DNA of 64,000 nt from Gammaproteobacteria bacterium (GTDB lineage: Bacteria > Pseudomonadota > Gammaproteobacteria > Ga0077554 > Ga007554), in NCBI GenBank assembly GCA_021731145.1, contig JAKFXX010000005.1, positions 18,821-82,820 of the forward strand, read 5' to 3'. The translations under genes and the position numbers were made by a program. The notes beneath the pieces are model-generated. The model was not told where the DNA came from. It did no database searches and worked only from the letters and a program-made list of their open reading frames with translations. Shown one piece after another: positions 8,167 through 61,748 of this stretch. Each line of letters starts with the position of its first letter. Within the stretch, counting starts at the first letter, position 1.

Positions 8167-8182
8167 AAGCAATCCAACAGTG

Positions 8183-8217
8183 CAATGTTGGGTCCGCTTC
8201 GCTTGACCCAACCTACA
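8183..8217. repeat. REP-like palindromic element (family A: GTTGGGTCC...GACCCAACCTACA), single hairpin
   Basis: Sequence caatgttgggtccgcttcgcttgacccaacctaca has an 8-bp stem gttgggtc/gacccaac. The same core recurs at ~13339, ~30020-30110 and ~59895-60090. Confidence 0.5.
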
Positions 8218-8238
8218 TTTAGCTACATTTCACTTTAG

Positions 8239-19671: not shown

Positions 19672-21693
19672 CTATCTTGGGTTAAGATTGGCCAGATTGG
19701 CTAATTGTTGCGTCAAAAAATTGCTGGCTGTGGTCATTCTGCTGATGATCATGTCAAGCGCAGTGAATTGGGCACGATAGCGCTTCTCCGTGTCGGCCAG
19801 CCGATCGGTCAGACGTTGCCTGTTCTCGTCAAGGCTTTTCAGGGAGGCGTTGATGCCATTAGTACGTGATGAAATCGGGCCATCCGTGCCGAGCTGCGAG
19901 TTCGCGAGATTGTCAAGCTGGTAGGCATAGCCTTGCGAGTAATTGACCGTGCCACGGATACCGATACTACCGCCGGTGATTTGTACTCTGAGTCCCTCAG
20001 ACGGATCACCCTTGGCGCCAGTGAGAAATTGTCCGGCGCCAGTCACAGCCACGCCGTTGATAGTGCCCATCGTGTCCAGGCCAGCCGCGACCGTGGCAGC
20101 GGCACCCAGAAGATTGGTCATGCCAGTGCCACCGATAACGCTGGCGCCGGATGTCGAGCCATAACGATTGGATGTGATCGTCAACACACCCGCTGATTCA
20201 GTCACTGTCGCCGATGATCCGGCGGCAACGAATGCGGCTGCGCCATTGATCTTTGATTGTACTTCTGCCGCCAGCGCAGCAGCGGTCGCATAGGTTCCCC
20301 CCGCCAACGTAATTGTTGAGGTAACACCATCCAACAGCACTTGGAGAGAATCGTTAGTGCCAGGAGTAATAGTAAGGCCAGCGGCTGCCGAGCCAATGGT
20401 ATTGCCTTGGGTGGCGAGTTGACTGACATTGAGGCTATACGCGCCAGATACTGTCTTGGCCGTGGCACTGGAATAACTGGCAAGGCTATCGCTCGCTTTA
20501 CCGACGGTGGCAAAAAGCCCTGCAATGTCGCTGAACTTGGTGTCCATGGCACTCTGTAATTTGGTGTTATCCACGGCCAGAGAACCGTCTTTTTGTAAGG
20601 TGATGCCGACTTGAGACAGTTGCGTGAAGGCGCTGGCACCCCCTGGAACGGGTGCCGATATCACGCTACGGATCTGGGTTTGGATCGAGCGCACTGAGGA
20701 CTCACCGTTCAGAATGGCAGCCTGTTTGGTAGCGGCATTAAAGGCCGATGCATCATTGAGCGTCTTGTTAATGTCGTTGTAAGACTTAACGAAGACACCC
20801 ACGGCAGCTATCACCGAACTGGTGTCGCGCGCCACCGTAATATTGGTAGGACTACCGGCATTGGTCTTTGCCAGATTGAGGGTGACGCCTTGAATCACAT
20901 CACTGGCCGTGTTGGTAGCCTTGGAGACGGCAATGCCATCCACCTTGAAAGCAGCGTTTTGGGCGCTGACCGTTTCAGAGAAAGCTTGACCTGTATTATT
21001 GGCAGGGTCTTGGCTGAGCAGGGTGGAGAGGGCCGCATCGCCCGCTACCGATATCTTCATGCTTTGGGTCTGGCCAGTGGCGTTCACGGTCAACGCCAGA
21101 CGATAAGGTGAAGCGCTGCCATCGTTCACAATAGTGGCGTTCACACCGATACTGGCCTTGTTAATCGCATCGCGGATGCCGGAGAGTGAGTTATTGGTTG
21201 CGTCTATGGTAACGGTCTTGACGCCCGCGCCATTGGTGGTAAAGCTGGCACCGGAATAGAGTCCGGTTGCACTATTAAAGGTGCCGCCGACAATCGTGCC
21301 GAAGTCGAAGCTAAGCGTAGTGGCAACGCCAGTGCCTATTGTTGCGCTATCACTAACCTGTCCTGCGGAAGCCAGTTTTTGCGCTTGTGCGAGTTTTGTC
21401 ACTTCCAGTGAATACGTACCAGGTGCCACACCTGCACTGCCGCTGGCGGATACAATACTCGCGTCAGCAGGTGTAACGCGCACCCCTTGAAACTTGCTGA
21501 TATCGGAGAGACCTCGCACCGCCGTTTGGAATTGCGAGAGCGCACCCTTAAGCGTGCCTAAACCGGAAAGTTTCGCTTGAAAGTTCGCTTCTTTCTTGTT
21601 TAGCTGGCTGAGAGGCTGCTGTTCAACACTCATCAACTGGCTGACGATGCTGTTGACATCAAGGTTCGAGCCAATGCCTGGGGAAGAAATCAT
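19672..21693 (-). CDS. fliD: flagellar filament cap protein FliD
   Basis: 673 aa with conserved FliD N- and C-terminal coiled-coil regions. Confidence 0.85.
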   Translation of the reverse strand: MISSPGIGSNLDVNSIVSQLMSVEQQPLSQLNKKEANFQAKLSGLGTLKGALSQFQTAVRGLSDISKFQGVRVTPADASIVSASGSAGVAPGTYSLEVTKLAQAQKLASAGQVSDSATIGTGVATTLSFDFGTIVGGTFNSATGLYSGASFTTNGAGVKTVTIDATNNSLSGIRDAINKASIGVNATIVNDGSASPYRLALTVNATGQTQSMKISVAGDAALSTLLSQDPANNTGQAFSETVSAQNAAFKVDGIAVSKATNTASDVIQGVTLNLAKTNAGSPTNITVARDTSSVIAAVGVFVKSYNDINKTLNDASAFNAATKQAAILNGESSVRSIQTQIRSVISAPVPGGASAFTQLSQVGITLQKDGSLAVDNTKLQSAMDTKFSDIAGLFATVGKASDSLASYSSATAKTVSGAYSLNVSQLATQGNTIGSAAAGLTITPGTNDSLQVLLDGVTSTITLAGGTYATAAALAAEVQSKINGAAAFVAAGSSATVTESAGVLTITSNRYGSTSGASVIGGTGMTNLLGAAATVAAGLDTMGTINGVAVTGAGQFLTGAKGDPSEGLRVQITGGSIGIRGTVNYSQGYAYQLDNLANSQLGTDGPISSRTNGINASLKSLDENRQRLTDRLADTEKRYRAQFTALDMIISRMTTASNFLTQQLANLANLNPR

Positions 21694-21714
21694 TACGACG
21701 TGCCTCGAGTGAGC

Positions 21715-22062
21715 TTAGGCCTGAGTTCTGATGACAATACCTTGCAGCTTGTCCAGCGCTTTAGAGATCGCCAACACTTCCTGTGAAGGGATTTGCCGCA
21801 GAACAGCCTGGGTCTCCGTATCAATAACCTTGACCAAGGTTCTGCCAGTATCCTGGTCAGTACTAAATTGAACGCCGCTGGCAATCGGCTTGAGTGATTT
21901 ATTTATCGTTTCTACCGCCTGTTTCAACTCCGCAGTACTGACAACAGTAGCTTGTGCGGGGCCGGGCTCTGGAGCACTCTGCACGTTTTTCGATAAAATG
22001 TGCGTAGCAGCCTGTGTTGCATTGGGCGCCTGCCCTGTATTTGAAATCGAATTAATGTCCAT
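21715..22062 (-). CDS. flaG: flagellar protein FlaG
   Basis: 115 aa with FlaG C-terminal motif (TGRTLVKVIDTETQAVLRQIPSQEVLAI). Confidence 0.75.
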   Translation of the reverse strand: MDINSISNTGQAPNATQAATHILSKNVQSAPEPGPAQATVVSTAELKQAVETINKSLKPIASGVQFSTDQDTGRTLVKVIDTETQAVLRQIPSQEVLAISKALDKLQGIVIRTQA

Positions 22063-22149
22063 GATTTATCCCCTCACAGTGGGTAGACGGAAAGTGGTTT
22101 CCCACCTTCCGTCCTGTTAAAACGACCCAAAAGGATCGTTTTTTACTGA

Positions 22150-23670
22150 TTAGCGTAACAGTGCCAATACGCCATTAGGCAACGAGTTAGCTTGCGCCAA
22201 CATCGCAGTACCGGCTTGCTGCAGGATCTGGCCACGGGTCAGGCTGGCGGTTTCAGCAGCGAAGTTGGTGTCTTGAATCCGGCTACGTGCTGCACTCAGG
22301 TTTTCCGAGGTGGCCTGCAAATTGCTGACCGTGGTAGAGAATCGATTCTGCAAGGCGCCGAGCGAAGCACGCGAATTGTTGATGTTGGCCAGTGCAGAAT
22401 CGATTACCTGCAATGCGTTGTTGGCGCCGGTGGGGATGCCGCTGGTCATCGTTGTGATATCGACGGATGCCACCGAAGACAGCCCGCTGGAAAGGGTAAC
22501 TGCTCCGCCTGCAAGTATACCGGCAGCACTGGCCGTGGCCGTGAAGGCCGAGGCAGAGTTAAAGGTAACCTTGCCACCTACAGTCCCCGTGTCGCCAGCA
22601 GAGCCACTAGCGGCAAAGGTGATTGCGGTTCCGGTTCCACCGTCAGCGGTTGGTGCGCCGGTATAGGTGATTGTAGTTTGCGCGGTGTTGTTTTTCACGC
22701 CAATATCATAGCCTTGGGCTTGGGTCAGCGCGATTTTCCCGGTGGTCGTGTCGGCGACTGCGGTGATGCCGGTTGAGCCAGTCTGTGCATTAATCGCCGT
22801 GGTCAAGGCGCCTACGTCGGTGGCAGAAGCGAGCGTGGCGCTAATCGTTACCGGGTTAGCTGCACCAGCAGAGGTGGGGGCACCCTGCAAGGTCAGAGAA
22901 ACTGTACCTGCAACGAAGCCTCCCAGCGTCGATACTGTAGTGGCAGAGGCAGATACCCCTGTAGAGCCGGCTGCGGCATTTACCGCATCTGCGATGGCTT
23001 TACCCGAGGCGCCAGCGGCGATAGTGAGAGCTCCGCTACTCGCGCCGTTGCCCTGAATCGTCAGGGTTCCCGCTGCAACATTGTTGGCTGGGATTGTTCC
23101 TGCGGCAGTACCTGCTTTAGAATCTACCATGGTACCCCCGCTGGCCTTTGCAAGCGTGTTATTACCGATTGCGGACCCCTGGGCGCTGCCGATAGAGAAG
23201 TTAATTGTTTGGTTGGCGTTGGCGCCGACCTGGAACTGGGCGTTGTTAAGTGAACCATCCAAGGTATTCAGGCCATTGAACTGGGTCGTATTGGCCACGC
23301 GATTAATTTCCTGCTGGATTTGGCTAACTTCCTGTTGCAGGGAAGCGCGATCCGAGGCGGAGTTGGTGCCGTTGGCAGCCTGCACGGCCAATGAGCGCAT
23401 ACGTTGCAGCAGGTCAGTGGTGGTGGCCAAGCCGCCTTCAGCGGTCTGGGCCAGCGAGATGCCATCGTTGGCATTACGGGATGCCTGATTGAGACCATTG
23501 ATCTGGCTGGTCATCCGGCTGGAGATCGCAAGTCCGGCGGCGTCATCTTTGGCGCTGTTGATGCGCAAGCCAGAAGACAGGCGTTGCAGAGAGGTGGCTA
23601 ATTCTGACGACGATGTCATGAGGTTGCGTTGAGCATTTAACGAAGCGACGTTGGTATTGATAACTGACAT
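22150..23670 (-). CDS. fliC: flagellin FliC (506 aa, Ala/Thr/Gly-rich central region)
   Basis: Conserved N-terminus MSVINTNVASLNAQRNLMTS...LQRLSSGLRINSAKDDAAGLAIS and C-terminus ...RGQILQQAGTAMLAQANSLPNGVLALLR. RBS GGAGAA. Confidence 0.9.
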   Translation of the reverse strand: MSVINTNVASLNAQRNLMTSSSELATSLQRLSSGLRINSAKDDAAGLAISSRMTSQINGLNQASRNANDGISLAQTAEGGLATTTDLLQRMRSLAVQAANGTNSASDRASLQQEVSQIQQEINRVANTTQFNGLNTLDGSLNNAQFQVGANANQTINFSIGSAQGSAIGNNTLAKASGGTMVDSKAGTAAGTIPANNVAAGTLTIQGNGASSGALTIAAGASGKAIADAVNAAAGSTGVSASATTVSTLGGFVAGTVSLTLQGAPTSAGAANPVTISATLASATDVGALTTAINAQTGSTGITAVADTTTGKIALTQAQGYDIGVKNNTAQTTITYTGAPTADGGTGTAITFAASGSAGDTGTVGGKVTFNSASAFTATASAAGILAGGAVTLSSGLSSVASVDITTMTSGIPTGANNALQVIDSALANINNSRASLGALQNRFSTTVSNLQATSENLSAARSRIQDTNFAAETASLTRGQILQQAGTAMLAQANSLPNGVLALLR

Positions 23671-23778
23671 GATAGTTCTCCTCTTGCCGTGGAAAAGCCT
23701 TAATGTAGTGACTTGATCACGGAGATTGATAATTAGCGGATATGTTTCCTAAGTTGAAACATTTACCGCTTCCGATTA

Positions 23779-23808
23779 GGTTATCGGTTAGCTGGCAATC
23801 AAACTTTA
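23779..23808 (-). promoter_or_regulatory. sigma28 (FliA) promoter of fliC
   Basis: Minus strand reads TAAAGTTT-gattgccagcta-ACCGATAA, a near-consensus class III flagellar promoter ~110 nt upstream of the fliC ATG. Confidence 0.55.
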
Positions 23809-23849
23809 GGTAATTTTTGGGGGGAATAGCTACAGAGAGTAAAAATTAT

Positions 23850-24179
23850 CTATGCTGACAAGCCACGCGCCAACGCCATCACTTCTTCGCAAGGAATCTG
23901 CCGAATAACCTCATGGGTTTCCATATCAATGACTTTGACCACCACCCGGCCACTACTTTCGTCGATGCTGAATTGCATATCGCGTCGATAATTTTGAATG
24001 AACCGGTTTAAACTGCTGACCACTCCTTTCAAAGAAACATCGGCCTGTCCGTCCTGCTCACCATAGATTTGTTGTGGTAAAGGACCCTGCAACCCATTTT
24101 CCGAGTCCGCGCTTAAACCACTTGCTGCCTGTCCCGCAGGCTGGGACACTGCGACCATTTCAGAGATGTCAGGAACCAT
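23850..24179 (-). CDS. second FlaG paralogue
   Basis: 109 aa. SGRVVVKVIDMETHEVIRQIPCEEVMAL matches the FlaG C-terminal motif. Lies downstream of the decayed fliC copy. Confidence 0.7.
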   Translation of the reverse strand: MVPDISEMVAVSQPAGQAASGLSADSENGLQGPLPQQIYGEQDGQADVSLKGVVSSLNRFIQNYRRDMQFSIDESSGRVVVKVIDMETHEVIRQIPCEEVMALARGLSA

Positions 24180-24243
24180 TATATCTACCTCATATCACTG
24201 CGTAAAAACTCACCCGGACGTCCCAACCCGAATGATCCCATCA

Positions 24244-24566
24244 TCAACTTACCGCAACACCGGCAACACTCCGCTGGGTAACGCATTGGCCTGGGCCAAC
24301 ATCACCGTACCCGCCTGCTGCAGGATCTGGTCGTGGGTAAGGATGTTGCAAAGAGGGCACGATCGAAAATTTTGCCGTGGTGAGATTAAACTGTGCATTG
24401 CGCCAGGAAATATTGATATTATTAACTAGCACATGAAATTATAAATTACGAAACATGATTCGAATCCCATGTAGGTCTGGCTTTAGCCAGACATGTCGGC
24501 CTGAAGGCCGACCTACAATCGTGCGGCATTATGCTGCACGATTTATGTGTTCATATACTAGGCACA
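24244..24566 (-). pseudogene. decayed second flagellin gene (fliC'): RBS + ATG, MITE insertion, ~28 N-terminal codons, an internal deletion (out of frame), then ~30 C-terminal codons
   Basis: VNNINISWRNAQFNLTTAKFSIVPSLQ corresponds to fliC VINTNVASLNAQRNLMTSSSELATSLQ. The 3' end encodes LTHDQILQQAGTVMLAQANALPSGVLPVLR*, 24/30 identical to the FliC C-terminus, in a different frame. The GAGGAGAAAGCACC-ATG start is at 24564-24566. Confidence 0.55.
24431..24561 (-). mobile_element. 131-bp MITE-like element, copy 1, inserted at the 5' end of fliC'
   Basis: Near-identical inverted copy at 61344-61474. Contains nested hairpins (gtaggtctggc-ttta-gccagacatg; tcggcc-tgaa-ggccga; gtaggtc...gacctac). Possible CTAG flank duplication. 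Confidence 0.5.
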
Positions 24567-24678
24567 TGGTGCTTTCTCCTCGTCCCGCGAGCGCGCAGAT
24601 TTTAAACCTGTCCACTTGCGGATGGGTTGATATTTAACGGACATATTTCTCATACGAAATATTCACTGCGTCCGGTTT

Positions 24679-24708
24679 GGTTATCGGGCTGGAGGGGATG
24701 AAACTTTA
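24679..24708 (-). promoter_or_regulatory. orphan sigma28 promoter upstream of the fliC' pseudogene and flaG'
   Basis: Minus strand reads TAAAGTTT-catcccctccagc-CCGATAA. It retains both consensus elements despite decay of the gene it served. Confidence 0.5.
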
Positions 24709-24764
24709 GGGGATGTTCATGCTGTTGGTAGGGATGCGGTTGAAACCGGCCCCTACGAAAAGAT

Positions 24765-25973
24765 TTATCTGAGAAAATTAAACAGCGACAATCCCTGTAT
24801 TTTGATAAAAGATTGCTGTGCCGCCTGCAGGCCGGTCAATTGCAAATTGAGGCGGCTGACAGCTTCTGTATAATCGAGGTCCTGTAGCGTGGAAAGGGTT
24901 GTTTGAACCTGAAGCTTAAAGCCATCGTTGATGCCTTTCTGAGCATCAATGGCATTGATCCTGGCACCGGCTTTCGCGCGAACATCAAGAATATTTCCTA
25001 ACCCTTGATCCAGATCGACAAGGGTGCGATTGATGGCATTGTTCAAATGCGCACGGGATGCCGCGCCGCTTACCGGTGTCTCCAAGGCGTTAGCAAGACT
25101 TTGCAGTGTGGTGAAAATATCCTGGTTGGCACTGGGGGTGACCGTGAAACTGTCGCCATTGGCGGGCGTGCCCGTGACATTAGTTTGCACCCCATTGAAG
25201 GCAATGGTGCTGTCACTGGTATACGTACCAGAGGTTACCACACCGCTCACCGCACCCGTCACCGTGTAAGTGATCGGCGCAGTGGGCAACGCCTGGGTAA
25301 AAGCGAGAGTGTAGGTGTCTGGGACAAATCCGCTGGTTGCAGTGCCCGGATCAATCACTCCACTGCCAGTATTAAGCAGATTTTCCTGCGTTGTAAAAAC
25401 GCCATTGCCATTACGGATGGCACGAAACACGTCCGTTCCCGAATCGCCCACCGCCACTTGCCTCGCAGGGCCGATCTGCAAATAGCGCTGCCCCTCATCG
25501 CCACTATAGGAAAAACCTCCCGCAGCATTCCGGCTAAAGGGCTGAGTACTCCCTTGGTAACCGGAAAACAGATATTCGTTGTTAGCATCCTTTACATTCG
25601 CCAGGCCCAACAAGCTATCCAGGCTTTGACGCACTTCTTGCGCGATGGAAGCGCGGTTTTCGTTACTCAAAGTCGCGTTATTGGCCTGTACGGCCAGCCC
25701 CCGTACCCGTTGCAGGAGATCACCGATGCCACTTAGTGTCTGGTCTTCCAGAGAGAGCCGCGAATTTGCCGCGTCCGCATTTGACTGATACTGTCCGGTG
25801 ACTGCCTTTTCCTGCGTCAAGCTTAGCACTTGTGCCGCGGCGGCGGGATCATCCGCCGGGGTGAGGATGCGCTTGCCGGTGGAAACCTGTAATTGCGTTT
25901 TGGCGAGCAAGGCTTGCTGCTCCAGCATGGAATTTACACCTTGCTGCTGCATTTGATTGGTGGAGATGCGCAT
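24765..25973 (-). CDS. flgL: hook-filament junction protein FlgL
   Basis: 402 aa, flagellin-like N- and C-termini (FlgL family). Confidence 0.85.
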   Translation of the reverse strand: MRISTNQMQQQGVNSMLEQQALLAKTQLQVSTGKRILTPADDPAAAAQVLSLTQEKAVTGQYQSNADAANSRLSLEDQTLSGIGDLLQRVRGLAVQANNATLSNENRASIAQEVRQSLDSLLGLANVKDANNEYLFSGYQGSTQPFSRNAAGGFSYSGDEGQRYLQIGPARQVAVGDSGTDVFRAIRNGNGVFTTQENLLNTGSGVIDPGTATSGFVPDTYTLAFTQALPTAPITYTVTGAVSGVVTSGTYTSDSTIAFNGVQTNVTGTPANGDSFTVTPSANQDIFTTLQSLANALETPVSGAASRAHLNNAINRTLVDLDQGLGNILDVRAKAGARINAIDAQKGINDGFKLQVQTTLSTLQDLDYTEAVSRLNLQLTGLQAAQQSFIKIQGLSLFNFLR

Positions 25974-25976
25974 AAA

Positions 25977-27896
25977 TTATCTCCTGATGGCACCCATAAG
26001 GGTTTGGAAGAGATTATCTGTCATCGAAATTACCTGTGCGGATGCCTGATATGCCTGTTGCAGGCGCACCATGTTGGCGGCCTCTTCGTCAAGATTGACG
26101 CCGGACACGGCATCGCGCGCCTCTAGCGACTGCTTGCGCAAAACATCCTGCGCATTGCGGGTAATATCCGCTTGATGGGCTTGTGTTCCCACATTGGCCA
26201 CCAATTCACCATAGGCGTCCTGATAGGTGGCTGTGCCGCCTCCCAGCATTTGCTGTTTCTGCAATTGACCCAGCAGCAATGCATTACGGTTGTCACTCAC
26301 GCCGCTGGTATTCGCGCCGACAGAAAATACATCGCCTGTTGCGGCAGCGCCGCTGATCTTTGCCGTCCAGCCGTTGTAGCTGATGGCTTGACCAGAGACA
26401 TAGGGAACATTCGTCGCAAGTGTACCGTTGGTTGCGTCAACGACATTAAATAGGCCGGGCGAAGTGAACGTGATGCTTACTGTGTTGCGCAGATCAGGGT
26501 CTTGCGCATTCGCCACGCCCGGGCTGATGGTGGCGGCACTTGTGTTCGTCAACGCGGCGGATGTGCGTATCGGCGCACCGGCGGCGATACTTTTGGCGTC
26601 GTTGATCACCATACCGATGGTCTGCGCGCCCTGGCGCGTGGGCTGGATCAAAAAGCTGTCGTTGACTGCCGCACCTGCGGTGATATTCAGCGAAAACCCA
26701 TCAATCGCCGCGCTGGTATAGGGATAGCTGCCGCCGGTATTTATGGCGGATGTTTGATTGTCGGAAAGCCGGGTGAGCGTGTAATTGTTGCTGCCCGTAT
26801 AGGTCAATCGGTAATCGCTGGTAGTCAACCCATTGGCATCCGCCAGCGCGGCTGTCACCGCACTGGTGCCGGTATTGAGCGATCTGGCCTGAACCTGGAG
26901 GCTGGGCGCCTTGAAAAAATCACTGCCCAGCGCGCCGTTCAAATCCTGGCCGAGTTTATGCTGGTCATTAAAGTTATCTGCCAGGCCAATCGCTACGCGG
27001 CCCAGGGTATTTTGCGCCACATCAAGCACGCGGTTGCGGAAATCCAGCACACCGCCCAACTTTCCGCCGCTCAATTGATTCGAAATATTGATCGTATCCG
27101 TGCCCATTTGATAACCGACTTCCAGGCGCGTCGCATCGAACTGGTTGTTCATCACACTCAGGGGTTGCGCACGGAAACCGGCAACCAGCGGCTGCCCGTT
27201 GCCGATAAACACATTAAGAGAGCCATCGTCTTGCGGCACGGTAGTGACGGCGACACGTTCCGACAATTGCGCAATCAACGCATCACGTTTATCAAGCAAA
27301 TCATTGGGCAGTGTTCCCGATGCCCTGCCGGGGGCGACAGAAATATCGCGGTTTACACTGGCGATCGACTGGGCAAGGCCGTTAATTTCGGTGACGCGGT
27401 TTTGCACCTCGGCATTCGCACCGTTACGCAACTCGCCAAGGCGTTGGTCCATATAATGAAATCGATCAACCAGCGTGCCTGACTCGCTCAGCAACACCTG
27501 ACGCGCCGCACCTGAACTTGGGTCGTTTGCGACGCCCTGAACGGCGTTGAAAAAACTTTGCAAGCTGGGCGTGAGGCCTGCCTGGGGATCAGCCAGCAGG
27601 TTGTCGATACGGCTGGTTAGCGTGTAAAAATTTTCCGTCTGGTTATAGGACGCCGTGTTCGTTTGCACCTGGGCAGTGAGAAAGTCGTCATACAGGCGCC
27701 GCACGCCGCCGACCGCCACACCCGTGCCCACATAGCCACCGCCGGAAAATTGCGGCGTGTTAGTAACAACATCCACGCGCTGACGGCTATAGCCTTCAGT
27801 GTTGACGTTAGTGATGTTCTGGCTCACTGTCGACAGTGAGCGCTGCGATGTCAACAGACCTGAAATACCTATGGCAAGTGAATCACCGACGGGCAT
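25977..27896 (-). CDS. flgK: hook-associated protein FlgK
   Basis: 639 aa. N-terminal rod/hook domain and C-terminal ...ANMVRLQQAYQASAQVISMTDNLFQTL. Confidence 0.85.
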   Translation of the reverse strand: MPVGDSLAIGISGLLTSQRSLSTVSQNITNVNTEGYSRQRVDVVTNTPQFSGGGYVGTGVAVGGVRRLYDDFLTAQVQTNTASYNQTENFYTLTSRIDNLLADPQAGLTPSLQSFFNAVQGVANDPSSGAARQVLLSESGTLVDRFHYMDQRLGELRNGANAEVQNRVTEINGLAQSIASVNRDISVAPGRASGTLPNDLLDKRDALIAQLSERVAVTTVPQDDGSLNVFIGNGQPLVAGFRAQPLSVMNNQFDATRLEVGYQMGTDTINISNQLSGGKLGGVLDFRNRVLDVAQNTLGRVAIGLADNFNDQHKLGQDLNGALGSDFFKAPSLQVQARSLNTGTSAVTAALADANGLTTSDYRLTYTGSNNYTLTRLSDNQTSAINTGGSYPYTSAAIDGFSLNITAGAAVNDSFLIQPTRQGAQTIGMVINDAKSIAAGAPIRTSAALTNTSAATISPGVANAQDPDLRNTVSITFTSPGLFNVVDATNGTLATNVPYVSGQAISYNGWTAKISGAAATGDVFSVGANTSGVSDNRNALLLGQLQKQQMLGGGTATYQDAYGELVANVGTQAHQADITRNAQDVLRKQSLEARDAVSGVNLDEEAANMVRLQQAYQASAQVISMTDNLFQTLMGAIRR

Positions 27897-29981: not shown

Positions 29982-30150
29982 CCCGGATTGTCCATTAGCC
30001 CCAAAATTGTTCACTTAAAGTAGGTTGGGTCAAGCGAAGCGGACCCAACATTGCCTGAAGCAATGATTTTGTTGAGTCCGGAGCTTGCGCTCCTTGACCC
30101 AACCTACACATTGAGCCTGTCGAGGGGCCGTTCATGTACCCAACTTGTCA
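29982..30150. repeat. composite REP/MITE-like element (family A) in the flgH-flgI intergenic region
   Basis: Sequence cccggattgtccattagcccc...taggttgggtcaagcgaagcggacccaacattgc-ctgaagcaatgattttgttgagtccggagcttgcgctccttgacccaacctacaca-ttgagcctgtcgaggggccgttcatg. The same element with a nested insert occurs at ~59867-60092. Coordinates approximate. Confidence 0.5.
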
Positions 30151-37965: not shown

Positions 37966-39636
37966 TTACCAGGAGAAGCCAACACCTACGCCATACACCG
38001 TGGTGCGGCCGCCGTTGTTGGTGGCAACGGAAACTTTGACCACAGCATTCGTAGCCATCCGGTAGGAAGCGCCAAGTGCCAGCGCGGCCCGGCTCTGGAA
38101 GTTGCCGAGGCCGAGGCCTACCCCGAAAGTCTTGTTCTGGTCAACCTGCGGAATGTTGGCCATGGCGGAAACTCCGGCTACACCAGCAGCAACTTGCTGC
38201 ATCTGACGATAGTTGACCGCGTCGAAAGGCTGCGTACCGTCGGCTACGCCATGCACTTGAACTGGCGCACCCGTGGCGGAATTGCTGAAAGAGGCCCCAT
38301 TATCGTCAAGCGTCAGGCTGGTGGAATTGGCGCCGCCAGACAGGGTCGCCTGGGATTCCGTTACGACCAGACCATGGGTATTTCCGATTCCGTTGGTTAC
38401 CGTCAGGGATGCAGTGGTTTGCGCAACGTTGCCGGTGGTAATCTTGCCATTAGCATCCACCACGGCGCCTCTTGAACCCGTGTTGGCAATCGATGTCTGG
38501 CCACTGGTGACTTGAGTCGCGCCGCCGAGTACCGAGGTGCCAGATGTTACAGTGGTCGACGCCGAGCCATTACCGACGAACATGGTGCTATTACCGCCAA
38601 CTGCCCTCACCGTCGTGCCAGCGTTGGTGCTGCCCAACACGTTGGTGCTGGCGAATGCTGCGTTATTGCCGATGTTGTTGGTGCTGATGGCGCCGCCATT
38701 GCCGATATTATTCGTCGTTACATACGCATTGACGCCAATATTGTTGGTAGCGCTATTCAGGCTGGTGGTATTTGTCAAGTTACCCATCGTCACCGCGCCG
38801 GTGCTGCTGCCGGTGTTGATGTTGGTTGCCGCATTGATGCTGGCATTGATGCTCGTCGTGCCGGCGATATTGTTGGTGCCGCCGAGCATCCCGATGCTCG
38901 TCGTCGCGGCAGCACCTGTGGCGATATTGGTTGCCGCGCCGCCCAGCGCATTGATATTGGTGGTACCCAAAACGGTATTGGTCGCACCGGTGATGGCTGT
39001 GGTACCTGTCGTATTACCAATGTTAGTGTTGCCCGTTCCTGCGGCAGAGATATTGGTTGTGCCTGCGCCGGCGTTGTTGATATCAACCGTACCACCCGCG
39101 CCGCTCAGGGTCGTGGTTGCGGTGCCGGTGGTGTTGACGTTGGTCGCGCCCAAAACCGTGTTGGTCGCACCGGTGATGGCAACGGCGCCAGTGGTGTTAC
39201 CAATGTTGGTGTTGCCCGTTCCTGCGGCAGAGATATTGGTTGTGCCTGCGCCGGCGTTGTTGATATCAACCGTGCCGCCCGCGCCGCTCAGGGTCGTGGT
39301 TGCAGTGCCGGTGTTGTTGATTTTGGTCGCGCCGATCACATCCACGGTACCTGTACCCACCGTCACCTCTACGTCACCAGCACCGGCGTTAATTGTGGTC
39401 GCGGCCTCCACTTTCACTGCGTCAGTGCCGATCGTCAGTTCCACAGCACCGGCACCGACGTCGTTGGTAATGCCTGCTGCAGCTGCATCTGCGGTCAAAT
39501 TTATGTCGGCCTTACCAGCGGTGGCGGTATGGGTAGCCGCATTAATATCAGAAGCAGCCATGACCTTCCCACCACCCAATGATGCCACTATAGCCAGTGC
39601 CAGCGCGCTCTTACGAAACTGAAATTTACTTTGCAT
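37966..39636 (-). CDS. trimeric autotransporter adhesin (YadA-like) with signal peptide, Gly/Thr/Asn-rich repetitive passenger and YadA-type membrane anchor
   Basis: 556 aa. The C-terminus AGVAGVSAMANIPQV...NKTFGVGLGLGNFQSRAALALGASYR...VKVSVATNNGGRTTVYGVGVGFSW matches the YadA anchor domain. Confidence 0.75.
   Translation of the reverse strand: MQSKFQFRKSALALAIVASLGGGKVMAASDINAATHTATAGKADINLTADAAAAGITNDVGAGAVELTIGTDAVKVEAATTINAGAGDVEVTVGTGTVDVIGATKINNTGTATTTLSGAGGTVDINNAGAGTTNISAAGTGNTNIGNTTGAVAITGATNTVLGATNVNTTGTATTTLSGAGGTVDINNAGAGTTNISAAGTGNTNIGNTTGTTAITGATNTVLGTTNINALGGAATNIATGAAATTSIGMLGGTNNIAGTTSINASINAATNINTGSSTGAVTMGNLTNTTSLNSATNNIGVNAYVTTNNIGNGGAISTNNIGNNAAFASTNVLGSTNAGTTVRAVGGNSTMFVGNGSASTTVTSGTSVLGGATQVTSGQTSIANTGSRGAVVDANGKITTGNVAQTTASLTVTNGIGNTHGLVVTESQATLSGGANSTSLTLDDNGASFSNSATGAPVQVHGVADGTQPFDAVNYRQMQQVAAGVAGVSAMANIPQVDQNKTFGVGLGLGNFQSRAALALGASYRMATNAVVKVSVATNNGGRTTVYGVGVGFSW
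38956..39315 (-). repeat. two near-identical 180-nt (60-aa) tandem repeats within the adhesin passenger domain
   Basis: Residues 108-167 and 168-227 (NNTGTATTTLSGAGGTVDINNAGAGTTNISAAGTGNTNIGNTTG.AITGATNTVLG.TN.) are nearly identical at nucleotide level. Confidence 0.7.
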
Positions 39637-59866: not shown

Positions 59867-60092
59867 AACCCGGATTGTCCATTAGCCCCAACACTGCTCA
59901 CTTAAAGTAGGTTGGGTCAAGCGAAGCGGACCCAACATTGCGCCCGTGACATTGTCACACCCGTAAAGGGCGCAATGCCTTTACGGTGAAAAGGGCACAA
60001 TGCACCCGTGAATCCCCGTGACCACCGTACACAACGCCTGAAGCGATGATTTTGTTGGGTCCGGAGCTTGCGCTCCTTGACCCAACCTACAC
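59867..60092. repeat. composite REP/MITE-like element (family A) carrying a nested ~95-bp insert of a second repeat family
   Basis: Same termini as the 29982-30150 element (cccggattgtccattagcccc...gacccaacctacaca). The insert gcccgtgacattgtcacacccgtaaagggcgcaatgcctttacggtg... has a relative at ~61559-61615. Confidence 0.5.
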
Positions 60093-60303
60093 ACTGCCAA
60101 CGCCCCTCTTCCCGCCCCCCATGAGTTTAGTCCATAAGCTTTTTCCAACATACCCCTAAAGCTCCTGTCCCACCCTGCCGATACTACCTTTGAGAGGAAG
60201 TATTTACAGTTTTCAGACTACCACGCAGGCCATTTTACAACCTATCAGTTACATATAGATGCCAACGGAAAGGCCACTGTCATTACGATGATTGAGGTGC
60301 GCT

Positions 60304-61347
60304 ATGACCAAAACAATTAATTTATTTGGCACGCTAAGCGTCTGGCTGCTGGTGACCATGGGCATACCAATCGCACAGGCGGACCACGCCGCCGGGCATG
60401 TCGACTTTAATTGGCAGCAGCGGGGCACCCTGAGCGGTACAGCGGACTTCAGTTGCGGGCGGGGCGTCTCCGACCCGGGGTGTAACATTGGCAGTTCCGC
60501 CGACCCCGACAAGACGGCATTTCTTCAGGAAATTGTTACCATCCAGGGGATCCAATATTTTCATTTGATCGTCGGCGGCGTCAACAGCAGCGGCAACCCG
60601 GTAAACCCGACCTCGGCCAACGAATCCACTGTTGCCTTCGGTCAGGAGGTCTTCATAAGAACACAAGGTGGTACGTTTTGTGTTGCAACAGTGTGCTCGT
60701 ACAGCGGCGGTAATGAGAGTGGTTTCAGCAATAACGGCAACGGCTATGATCCTCTTGCCAACAATATGACATCTAGCGGCACAGGAAATCGCTCTGGCTT
60801 TCCGACTCGGGTAATGATGAAGGAAGTAATGAACGATGGACAAATATCGCAAGTCTTTCTGAAAGACACCTTCGCCAATAAACCCATTATCACCCAGACC
60901 ATCACCTCGAAAGACACGGGTGGCACAACCGACATGACAGCCGAATTTAAAATTGACATGAGCAATAGTACATATAGCGATAATACCAAGGCCGGCTTAA
61001 TAACCAATAAGCTTACCTTCGCCGGGGCCAATGCCAAAATTCCTGGTAACTTTGATACCAATGGGCCAGATAATAGCTTTGTGACAGCCAACGCACAAAC
61101 GGGTAAAACCAATGTCACGGGCGGGCGCTATACCTTTGTTGAAGGCTCGGCGGGAAACAGCGGTACTTTTGGACAAGGAGTCTACACCTACATAAGCGGG
61201 GATGACGCCGCCACCACCCTGGATTGGAATGCCTTCCGTAATAACGTGGAGAACCCGCTTCAATATGGCACAACAACCTCTGTGCGCAAACGCTCTGGCG
61301 ATATCTGCAAATCCGCCAGCGCCGGCTCAATACCTGCCGGGTGCTAG
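60304..61347 (+). CDS. hypothetical secreted protein (Gly/Thr/Asn/Ser-rich), bounded by repeat elements
   Basis: Signal peptide MTKTINLFGTLSVWLLVTMGIPIAQA. No recognisable domain. The stop codon TAG is provided by the first bases (CTAG) of MITE copy 2. The track ORF starts at TTG at 60292. Confidence 0.5.
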   Translation: MTKTINLFGTLSVWLLVTMGIPIAQADHAAGHVDFNWQQRGTLSGTADFSCGRGVSDPGCNIGSSADPDKTAFLQEIVTIQGIQYFHLIVGGVNSSGNPVNPTSANESTVAFGQEVFIRTQGGTFCVATVCSYSGGNESGFSNNGNGYDPLANNMTSSGTGNRSGFPTRVMMKEVMNDGQISQVFLKDTFANKPIITQTITSKDTGGTTDMTAEFKIDMSNSTYSDNTKAGLITNKLTFAGANAKIPGNFDTNGPDNSFVTANAQTGKTNVTGGRYTFVEGSAGNSGTFGQGVYTYISGDDAATTLDWNAFRNNVENPLQYGTTTSVRKRSGDICKSASAGSIPAGC

Positions 61348-61474
61348 TATATGAACACATAAATTGTGCGGCGTAATGCCGCACGATTGTAGGTCGGCCT
61401 TCAGGCCGACATGTCTGGCTAAAGCCAGACCTACATGGGATTCGAATCATGTTTCGTAATTTATAATTTCATGT
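61344..61474 (+). mobile_element. 131-bp MITE-like element, copy 2 (inverted relative to copy 1)
   Basis: Near-identical to RC of 24431-24561. Both copies create the spurious ORFs beginning MIRIPCRSGFSQTCRPEGRPTIVRHYAA. Confidence 0.5.
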
Positions 61475-61748
61475 AATAGTCCAAAAGTAACGTCCCTACC
61501 CGCACGCGCCATCTTTAGGGGCCGTTAAGGAATAACCAGTGCTTTTCTGGTTAAGCCTCATTGTCACACCCGTGAAGGGCGCAATGCCTTACGGTGATTA
61601 CGGCCCCTTATGCCGTTCCCACCATTCTAAATGTACAGAGTAATTGTGAACGACGGCTTAATCATCACCGCTTAACGTCCCCAAACCCCACAATCCCTGG
61701 CGATCAGGTTATAATTTCACCCTGATCACTACATCAACAGTTATTAAA

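Follow-up and report, generated by a model that had tools for sequence, protein, structure and literature searches.

A dead flagellin gene whose sigma28-type promoter and leader probably still serve a truncated, constrained flaG paralogue

Flagellin and filament genes can be replaced by horizontal transfer and recombination at conserved ends, and cryptic flagellin genes are found at enterobacterial H-antigen loci. Among the miniature inverted-repeat transposable elements (MITEs), the enterobacterial ERIC/IRU and the neisserial Correia elements duplicate a TA target and become parts of mRNAs. The consensus of promoters recognised by FliA (sigma28) is TAAAGTTT-n11-GCCGATAA (PMC2859248; PMC7286023), and in flaG-fliD-fliS operons a sigma28 promoter precedes a flagellin gene and the FlaG gene lies directly 3' of the latter (PMC11536152). 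In this study, a locus with elements of all these kinds was analysed in a 64-kb stretch of gammaproteobacterial DNA (assembly GCA_021731145.1, contig JAKFXX010000005.1), which is referred to as the window and provides the numbering used throughout. The flagellar genes of the region and the locus itself are all on the minus strand. Between flgL and the functional flagellin gene fliC, positions 24720-23850 hold a FliA-type promoter, the remains of a second flagellin gene (fliC') and a second FlaG gene (flaG'). The locus is probably the carcass of an older flagellin gene of native type, whose sigma28 promoter and leader would still be used for flaG'.

The promoter resembles known FliA flagellin promoters in matching the -35 octamer at 8/8 and the -10 octamer at 7/8 positions, in standing about 113 nt before a flagellin start and in having the same geometry as the window's own fliC promoter. 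It differs from them in a spacer of 12 instead of 11 nt and in that the gene it originally served is dead, and its activity is a prediction. As in the flaG-fliD-fliS operons, an upstream sigma28 promoter is followed first by a flagellin gene and then directly by a FlaG gene, whereas flaG' is a second, tail-less paralogue with no fliD or fliS after it. The locus shares with replacements of the H-antigen type the coding sequences of foreign affinity, a switch from native to foreign sequence near the start codon and the remnants left behind; here, however, remnants of as many as three displaced genes are present (fliC', fliD' and the 5' end of fliS), and flaG' survived under selection together with the old promoter. 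Each component is of a familiar kind, be it the FliA promoter, the flagellin pseudogene, the FlaG gene after a flagellin gene, the TA-duplicating MITE or the horizontal replacement. A dead flagellin gene as a long leader for a truncated, constrained FlaG paralogue is a new instance and not a new principle, and no paper describing this locus or its clade was found in the literature.

Relatives were gathered by a FlgL scan of species-representative genomes and by exact look-ups of FlaG' homologues. The two-module layout of the window recurs in four further genomes, namely L007 (the metagenome-assembled genome (MAG) 'Gammaproteobacteria bacterium Ga0074134', FlgL identity 90%), L018 (GCA_947085745.1), L019 (SRR22105531) and L024 (ERR13655527, partial). 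Sister genomes with a single filament module (L008, L015, L020 and L021) have an intact flagellin gene here or nearby. The original prediction had proposed to search relatives for an intact second flagellin gene at the position of fliC'. None was found in the genomes examined or in a metagenome scan with the FlaG' alignment, in which the sole close relative was the source of L007; instead, the four relatives carry the dead gene with different lesions. In all five genomes, the window included, promoter, leader and ATG of fliC' are the same and the stop codons and frameshifts differ.

The orphan promoter is located at 24708-24681 (minus strand) and reads TAAAGTTT-CATCCCCTCCAGC-CCGATAA with a 13-nt gap, so that the near-consensus sigma28 promoter of the original prediction is present as described. 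When the window was searched for TAAAGTTT-N13-CCGATAA with zero mismatches, just two matches were obtained, the orphan promoter and that of the functional fliC at 23808-23781 (minus strand), which has an equal sigma28 geometry. The orphan -35 box (24708-24701) is identical to TAAAGTTT and invariant in four genomes. The -10 octamer is CCCGATAA in the orphan promoter and ACCGATAA in that of fliC, and in L007 the orphan -10 is a perfect GCCGATAA. The spacer between the octamers is 12 nt in the orphan, in fliC and in the flagellin promoter of L008, as compared with 11 nt in the Escherichia coli consensus; because fliC and the L008 promoter share it, a 12-nt spacer is probably the normal geometry of this clade. 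No sigma54-type site was detected at 23850-24765, and matches across the window stayed at chance level.

Conservation of the promoter was assessed in the window, L018, L007 and L019. None of the 15 sites in the -35 and -10 boxes is variable, whereas 5 of the 13 sites in the gap between them, 61/189 sites (32%) of the fliC' remnant and 187/503 third codon positions (37%) of fliC vary. At a rate of 32%, the chance of finding no variable site among 15 is about 0.003. The two boxes are more strongly conserved than neutral evolution would predict.

The promoter is followed by the fliC' leader (24680-24568, minus strand), which contains a 7-bp hairpin at 24662-24643 and a ribosome-binding site GGAG at 24579-24576, and by an ATG at 24567-24565; both of the latter had been predicted. 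Homologous leaders precede fliC and the flagellin genes of L008, L020 and L021. The predicted fold of all these leaders, the orphan one included, has a common 5' structure in which an outer GCGG/CCGC stem encloses the 7-bp hairpin and is followed by TCCGCTAAnTATCAA. In an alignment of 11 leaders, 95.9% of the cells are paired and one compensatory A-U/G-C pair is seen. The equivalent structure of the functional fliC leader is at about 23743-23763 (minus strand). The loop contains GGA in fliC-type leaders and has GAGA in the orphan and in L008; unlike the fliC-type leaders, the orphan leader has kept neither the loop GGA nor one of the outer-stem pairs. Its remaining sites are about as variable as the fliC' remnant (28/107). 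A scan of 21000-26500, leaders included, matched no Rfam family at E<=1.

The coding part of fliC' is interrupted by a MITE, and removal of this element together with one TA restores an N-terminal frame of 30 codons, MCLVNNINISWRNAQFNLTTAKFSIVPSLQ. The first nine nucleotides of the gene, ATGTGCCTA, are found at 24567-24559 (minus strand), with the last two bases forming the left TA duplication, and the right TA duplication and codons 4-30 follow at 24428-24346 (minus strand). On their own, the 30 codons of the window are short and diverged and gave no Pfam or tblastn match. On the other hand, the L007 remnant, which has kept 53 N-terminal codons, matches FliC residues 3-104 (E 6e-7), and the window remnant can be aligned with it base for base and also with those of L018 and L019. 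Judged by this alignment, the N-terminal piece would be a flagellin homologue, indirectly through its L007 orthologue. One extra base then leads into 31 C-terminal codons, ILTHDQILQQAGTVMLAQANALPSGVLPVLR, and a TAA stop (24344-24249, minus strand), in the +1 frame relative to the N-terminal part. This piece is identical to FliC at 23/30 positions (tblastn E 1e-8) and shows 74% nucleotide identity over 97 nt of the fliC 3' end. Against the Pfam families Flagellin_N (PF00669) and Flagellin_C (PF00700), by which the pseudogene was judged, the window remnant scores 22.1 bits with Flagellin_C (cut-off 23, E 2e-4) and the L007 remnant 24.1 bits. The anatomy given in the original prediction was largely accurate: the internal deletion is out of frame, the nucleotide comparison that it had proposed bears out the C-terminal similarity, and the N-terminal piece is probably genuine, although it comprises 30 rather than about 28 codons and is recognisable through L007 and not from the window alone. 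The C-terminal piece of about 30 codons also stands, with 23 instead of 24 of 30 residues identical.

The reading frame of fliC' is disrupted by the frameshift at the deletion junction and by a stop within the MITE, 12 codons downstream of the ATG. From ATG to TAA, the gene of L007 is 345 nt long and stays in frame apart from a single TAG, and that of L018 is 323 nt long and has accumulated a number of frameshifts and stops. In L019, in L024 and, once the MITE is left out, in the window, the length is 187 nt, and the window shares its deletion junction with L019 and L024. The ratio of non-synonymous to synonymous differences per site (pN/pS) of the remnant is 0.61-1.22 among the window, L018, L007 and L019, none of the values being significantly below 1. 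The remnant evolves neutrally. A coding role, either as a small protein or as a C-terminal peptide that binds FliS, was rejected because frames and stops differ among the relatives.

The MITE (24558-24429, minus strand) is inserted 9 nt after the start of the fliC' ATG, between start codon and coding remnant as predicted, and has a length of 130 rather than 131 bp. Its ends, GTATATGAACACATAAAT and GCACATGAAATTATAAAT (reverse complement), are imperfect terminal inverted repeats with 13/18 matches, and the insertion duplicated the TA of a CTAG target. A second copy, inverted and 96% identical, is found at about 61347-61476 (plus strand), and both copies have the TA in a CTAG target at their left side. 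This second copy is situated between an open reading frame (ORF) of 351 codons (60292-61347), the end of which overlaps the insertion site, and metG (start 61749). L019 provides the exact empty site (ATGTGCC-TA-GTTAAT, no element), showing that the MITE is a genuine insertion, and fliC' of L007 and L018 is likewise free of it. The filled site is seen in L024, where the contig begins inside the MITE and continues with the window's deletion junction. Short-read contigs from five samples all break within the element, as is expected of a repeat, and identical contigs are present in the SRR10388250-59 samples. The 187-nt remnant of L019 shows the deletion but has no MITE, and the MITE is therefore later than the deletion. 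The element was accordingly dismissed as the inactivating lesion.

In its size of about 130 bp, its non-coding nature, its terminal inverted repeats, its TA duplication, its strong RNA fold and its place within a putatively transcribed region, the MITE is like the TA-duplicating elements of the IS630/Tc1-mariner type. Its likeness to ERIC/IRU and Correia elements is one of kind, no sequence similarity being claimed, and two copies are present in the window. The predicted RNA fold has -53 kcal/mol (z-score -6.4), with no hairpin followed by a U-run in this orientation. The terminal repeat has no further match in the window, searches for the MITE gave no hit in a plasmid collection or in the 105 fetched loci, and no parent transposase was found in these three sets.

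The second FlaG gene, flaG' (24179-23850, minus strand), encodes a native-type paralogue of 109 amino acids that matches PF03646 with 67.4 bits (cut-off 23.8) over profile positions 27-91 of 101. It was originally described as intact; its membership in the FlaG family holds, whereas the gene is 3'-truncated and has lost 10 internal codons. Compared with L007 and L019, about 376 bp are absent from the window, a gap that takes in the last ~20 codons of flaG' and a 69-codon fliD' remnant and ends shortly before the fliC promoter. At the junction (23859|23858) a new stop arises after Ser-Ala, and the last ~12 conserved residues are missing, including the tail G-x-L-L-x-x-Q/N-A. L018 and L024 have lost this tail as well, whereas all the other FlaG homologues in the alignment have kept it. 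A further in-frame deletion of 30 nt is located at 24058|24057. A GAGG 8 nt upstream of the flaG' ATG is kept in all relatives.

Despite these losses, flaG' is under purifying selection. Its pN/pS is 0.26-0.49 in all 10 pairs among the window, L018, L007, L019 and L024 (P 0.016 to 9e-6, the pairs not being independent), and the three pairs within the tail-less group of window, L018 and L024 have P<=0.003. The dN/dS (non-synonymous to synonymous substitution rate) of the 52-codon folded core is 0.06-0.23. The functional flaG gives similar ratios of 0.18-0.43, and dN of flaG' is 2-3 times that of functional flaG. An AlphaFold2 model of a full-length FlaG' orthologue has a mean predicted local distance difference test score (pLDDT) of 63, with core blocks at 83-90; its N-terminal half is disordered, and a helix, three strands and another helix come after it. 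The deletion in the window takes away the end of this second helix together with the C-terminal tail, which is modelled with low confidence. In Campylobacter jejuni, FlaG controls filament length and its last six residues are predicted to form a strand that docks on the FlhA torus; mutation of that FlhA site copies the long-filament phenotype of a flaG null (PMC11536152). By its position, the segment lost from FlaG' may correspond to the FlhA-docking strand of the C. jejuni protein.

The path from the orphan promoter to flaG' on the minus strand contains no strong terminator. The sole terminator-like feature is a weak hairpin with five T residues at 24235-24200 (minus strand), between the fliC' remnant and flaG', with a folding energy of -12.9 kcal/mol and a z-score of 0.39; it is conserved in four genomes. 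The two hairpins after functional fliC are strong (-40 kcal/mol, z -7.4). A sigma70 scan yielded two consensus-like matches in the interval, one at the edge of the MITE (24445-24418) and one abutting the flaG' ATG (24206-24178). In the whole scanned region 6 such matches were found against a shuffle expectation of 3.0, which is not clearly above it.

The orphan promoter has probably been kept to drive flaG', because its boxes are invariant and flaG' is constrained while the remnant between them drifts. From the arrangement we infer promoter activity, read-through and a role for the tail-less FlaG', in a sequence of events that may be outlined as follows. Foreign fliC, flaG and fliD genes of betaproteobacterial type would have taken over filament production under a promoter and leader of local type, which would have made the native fliC' and fliD' redundant. 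The lesions of fliC' themselves are evident from the sequence: a large internal deletion removed nearly all of the coding sequence, a second deletion left its remaining ends out of frame, and the 130-bp MITE with its TA duplication later landed 9 nt into the dead ORF. flaG' stayed under selection. At present, transcription by FliA-RNA polymerase would begin some 7 nt 3' of the -10 box, and the transcript would run through the leader, the MITE and the 187-nt remnant and past the weak hairpin to give flaG' mRNA. The dead gene would in this way constitute a 5' untranslated region of ~490 nt, with flaG' translated from its own GAGG.

Several observations weigh against this interpretation. The 12-nt spacer of the orphan promoter differs from the 11-nt E. 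coli consensus, and the promoter test comprises 15 sites in four genomes of recombining lineages, whose comparisons are not independent. The MITE fold and the hairpin with its T residues lie in the path of the transcript and could attenuate or process it. No terminator was found after flgL (stop 24765) before the promoter, and read-through from flgKL could supply flaG'. The flaG' of the window is without the conserved C-terminal tail, and because the C. jejuni counterpart of that tail is predicted to dock on FlhA, the present function of the gene is in doubt. The same truncation and the 10 missing internal codons, together with the elevated dN of flaG', the leader sites that vary like the remnant and the small size of the promoter test, would fit a pure relic, in which promoter, leader and flaG' are all leftovers, the boxes have stayed unchanged by chance or for want of time and flaG' is a pseudogene in disguise. 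We consider this unlikely: the adjoining remnant shows the pattern of neutral decay in these very lineages, yet the box sites are invariant next to a gap and a remnant that vary, pN/pS of flaG' is significantly below 1 in every pair, the truncated genes of the window, L018 and L024 included, and the dN/dS of its core is low.

Alternatively, flaG' could be transcribed mainly by read-through from flgK-flgL or from a promoter in the remnant or the MITE, with the sigma28 motif retained as a boundary element or as a site that titrates FliA. The lack of a terminator-like site between the flgL stop and the orphan promoter and the two weak sigma70-like matches are in line with such a supply. In L018, however, flaG' is conserved although the upstream sequence is unrelated to flgL, and the two sigma70-like matches are of consensus quality only, one coinciding with the flaG' ATG and the other requiring a MITE that is absent from L019, L007 and L018. 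We consider this origin of the transcript quite improbable. It is more improbable still that leader and remnant form a non-coding RNA ending at 24235-24200, which sequesters, like a decoy or sponge, some factor that binds the fliC leader as well, with flaG' expressed independently. The orphan leader does share the 5' hairpin architecture of the leaders of functional fliC and of the sister flagellin genes, and the hairpin with five T residues 3' of the remnant stop is conserved; but that hairpin is weak, the body of the RNA is neutral, ranges from 187 to 345 nt and tolerates a MITE, the leader has lost the loop GGA and an outer-stem pair, and no Rfam family is matched. As for the truncated protein, FlaG' might be a neofunctionalised regulator that kept its core and lost its tail and that tunes the export of foreign-flagellin filaments from a fossil promoter through a MITE-containing leader; it might bind a partner of FlaG without occupying the FlhA gate, or act as a secreted decoy. 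We regard this idea as a distinctly speculative one. With use of the old promoter and leader for flaG' as the preferred reading, L018 also bears on the promoter itself: homology to the window begins there 17 nt upstream of the -35 box (L018 1-201), so that the promoter appears to have survived a rearrangement that removed any flgKL read-through, unless the contig is an assembly artefact.

The functional flagellar genes around the locus were examined for their origin. Upstream are flgK (27896-25977, minus strand) and flgL (25973-24765, minus strand). Downstream, fliC (23670-22150), flaG (22062-21715) and fliD (21693-19672), all on the minus strand and each with a Pfam match, make up a surviving filament block at 19672-23670, and an intact fliS is found at 19180-18737 (minus strand). 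The surviving FliC is 75-82% identical to Oxalobacteraceae flagellins over its full length, the variable middle included, with 81% for Massilia cavernae, slightly lower values for Telluria and Herminiimonas and 51% for the sister gammaproteobacterial MAGs. The surviving FliD is 73-74% identical to FliD of the Polaromonas type, as compared with 52-53% to sister-MAG FliD. The loci used to compare foreign affinity included L106, L108 and L109. By contrast with the filament proteins, FlgL (74-75%) and the intact FliS (66-68%) were compared with the same sister MAGs and are of this identity to them, and FlaG' scores 195-226 with sister-MAG FlaG versus 130-157 with the FlaG of the window itself, of Polaromonas or of Massilia. 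On the basis of these similarities, the surviving genes are of foreign, betaproteobacterial affinity. FliC and FliD do not share their nearest relatives, which makes the surviving block a mosaic in its own right. The conserved end domains of flagellin did not discriminate native from foreign sequences, full-length FliC and FliD alone doing so, and base composition did not set the block apart.

The native module has left further traces. Between fliD and fliS lies a well-preserved 3' remnant of a native-type fliD gene (fliD') of 93 codons (19519-19238, minus strand), which matches Pfam FliD_C with E 4.9e-9. Its identity is 71-73% with FliD of L008 and L021, as compared with 52-54% with Polaromonas FliD and the FliD of the window itself, and the remnant includes a 72-codon ORF that is called in L018 too, with the ORF of the window's FliD 150 bp upstream. 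Directly after the functional fliD and overlapping this remnant, there is a fliS-like 5' fragment of ~44 codons (19629-19441, minus strand), which is too decayed to be assigned to a native or foreign source. A strongly decayed, AT-rich fliD' remnant of 69 codons, in which an N-terminal MASITSA motif is fused to a C-terminal RYRxQxTxLD motif, lies between flaG' and the fliC promoter in L007 (12305-12514) and L019 (1325-1534) and is not present in the window. It overlaps the remnant at 19519-19238 in FliD coordinates, and two native-type fliD 3' ends must hence have existed, one seen to the left of the block in L007 and L019 and one to its right in the window and L018.

The promoter and leader of the functional fliC are of the L020/L021 type and not of the Massilia or Polaromonas type, and around the fliC start codon the nucleotide sequence passes from resembling L021 to resembling Massilia. 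The most economical reading is that foreign filament coding sequences were recombined in under the local promoter, after which the native fliC' and fliD' would have decayed. The original prediction saw in the locus an ancestral two-flagellin arrangement reduced to one. With an 81% Massilia-like FliC and a Polaromonas-like FliD, this is too simple, and replacement of a native module accounts better for the locus. Simple replacement in turn leaves the two fliD 3' ends and the differing nearest relatives of FliC and FliD unexplained, and the history of the region comprises more than one step.

Recombination is also indicated by the distribution of deletions. The second deletion of the fliC' remnant (24344-24346) is common to the window, L019 and L024, and the 3' deletion of flaG' (23858-23859) to the window, L018 and L024. 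Their distributions fail the four-gamete test and fit no single tree, suggesting that the lineages recombine within about 700 bp or that some MAG contigs are chimeric. In L006, flgL is 92% identical, but the genes after it (from 11096) are unrelated and non-flagellar, among them a comEC-like one, which makes L006 uninformative for the locus. The breaks in L018 and L006 mean either that some relatives do not have flgL linked to the filament locus or that the MAG contigs are chimeric.

The locus offers a natural example of a foreign gene set displacing a native one, in which the structural genes rot while a small accessory gene and the promoter it would need are kept. For annotation, it suggests that an 'orphan' sigma28 promoter need not be non-functional, that a flaG paralogue which looks intact can prove to be truncated once its orthologues are compared and that the flagellin and cap genes of these uncultured gammaproteobacteria are of betaproteobacterial type. 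FlaG' is in addition a natural truncation with which the proposed role of the FlaG C terminus may be probed. The current understanding of flagellar regulation is unchanged by the locus.

Other repeats were observed elsewhere in the window. A family of short repeats at 8182-8222, 29982-30113 and 59869-60096, the copies of which are 92-96% identical, has a palindromic core GTAGGTTGGGTC...GACCCAAC and resembles repetitive extragenic palindromic (REP) sequences or MITEs, but is distinct from the MITE in fliC'. At 38951-39316, two tandem units of 183 nt with 89% identity occur in an apparently repetitive coding region.

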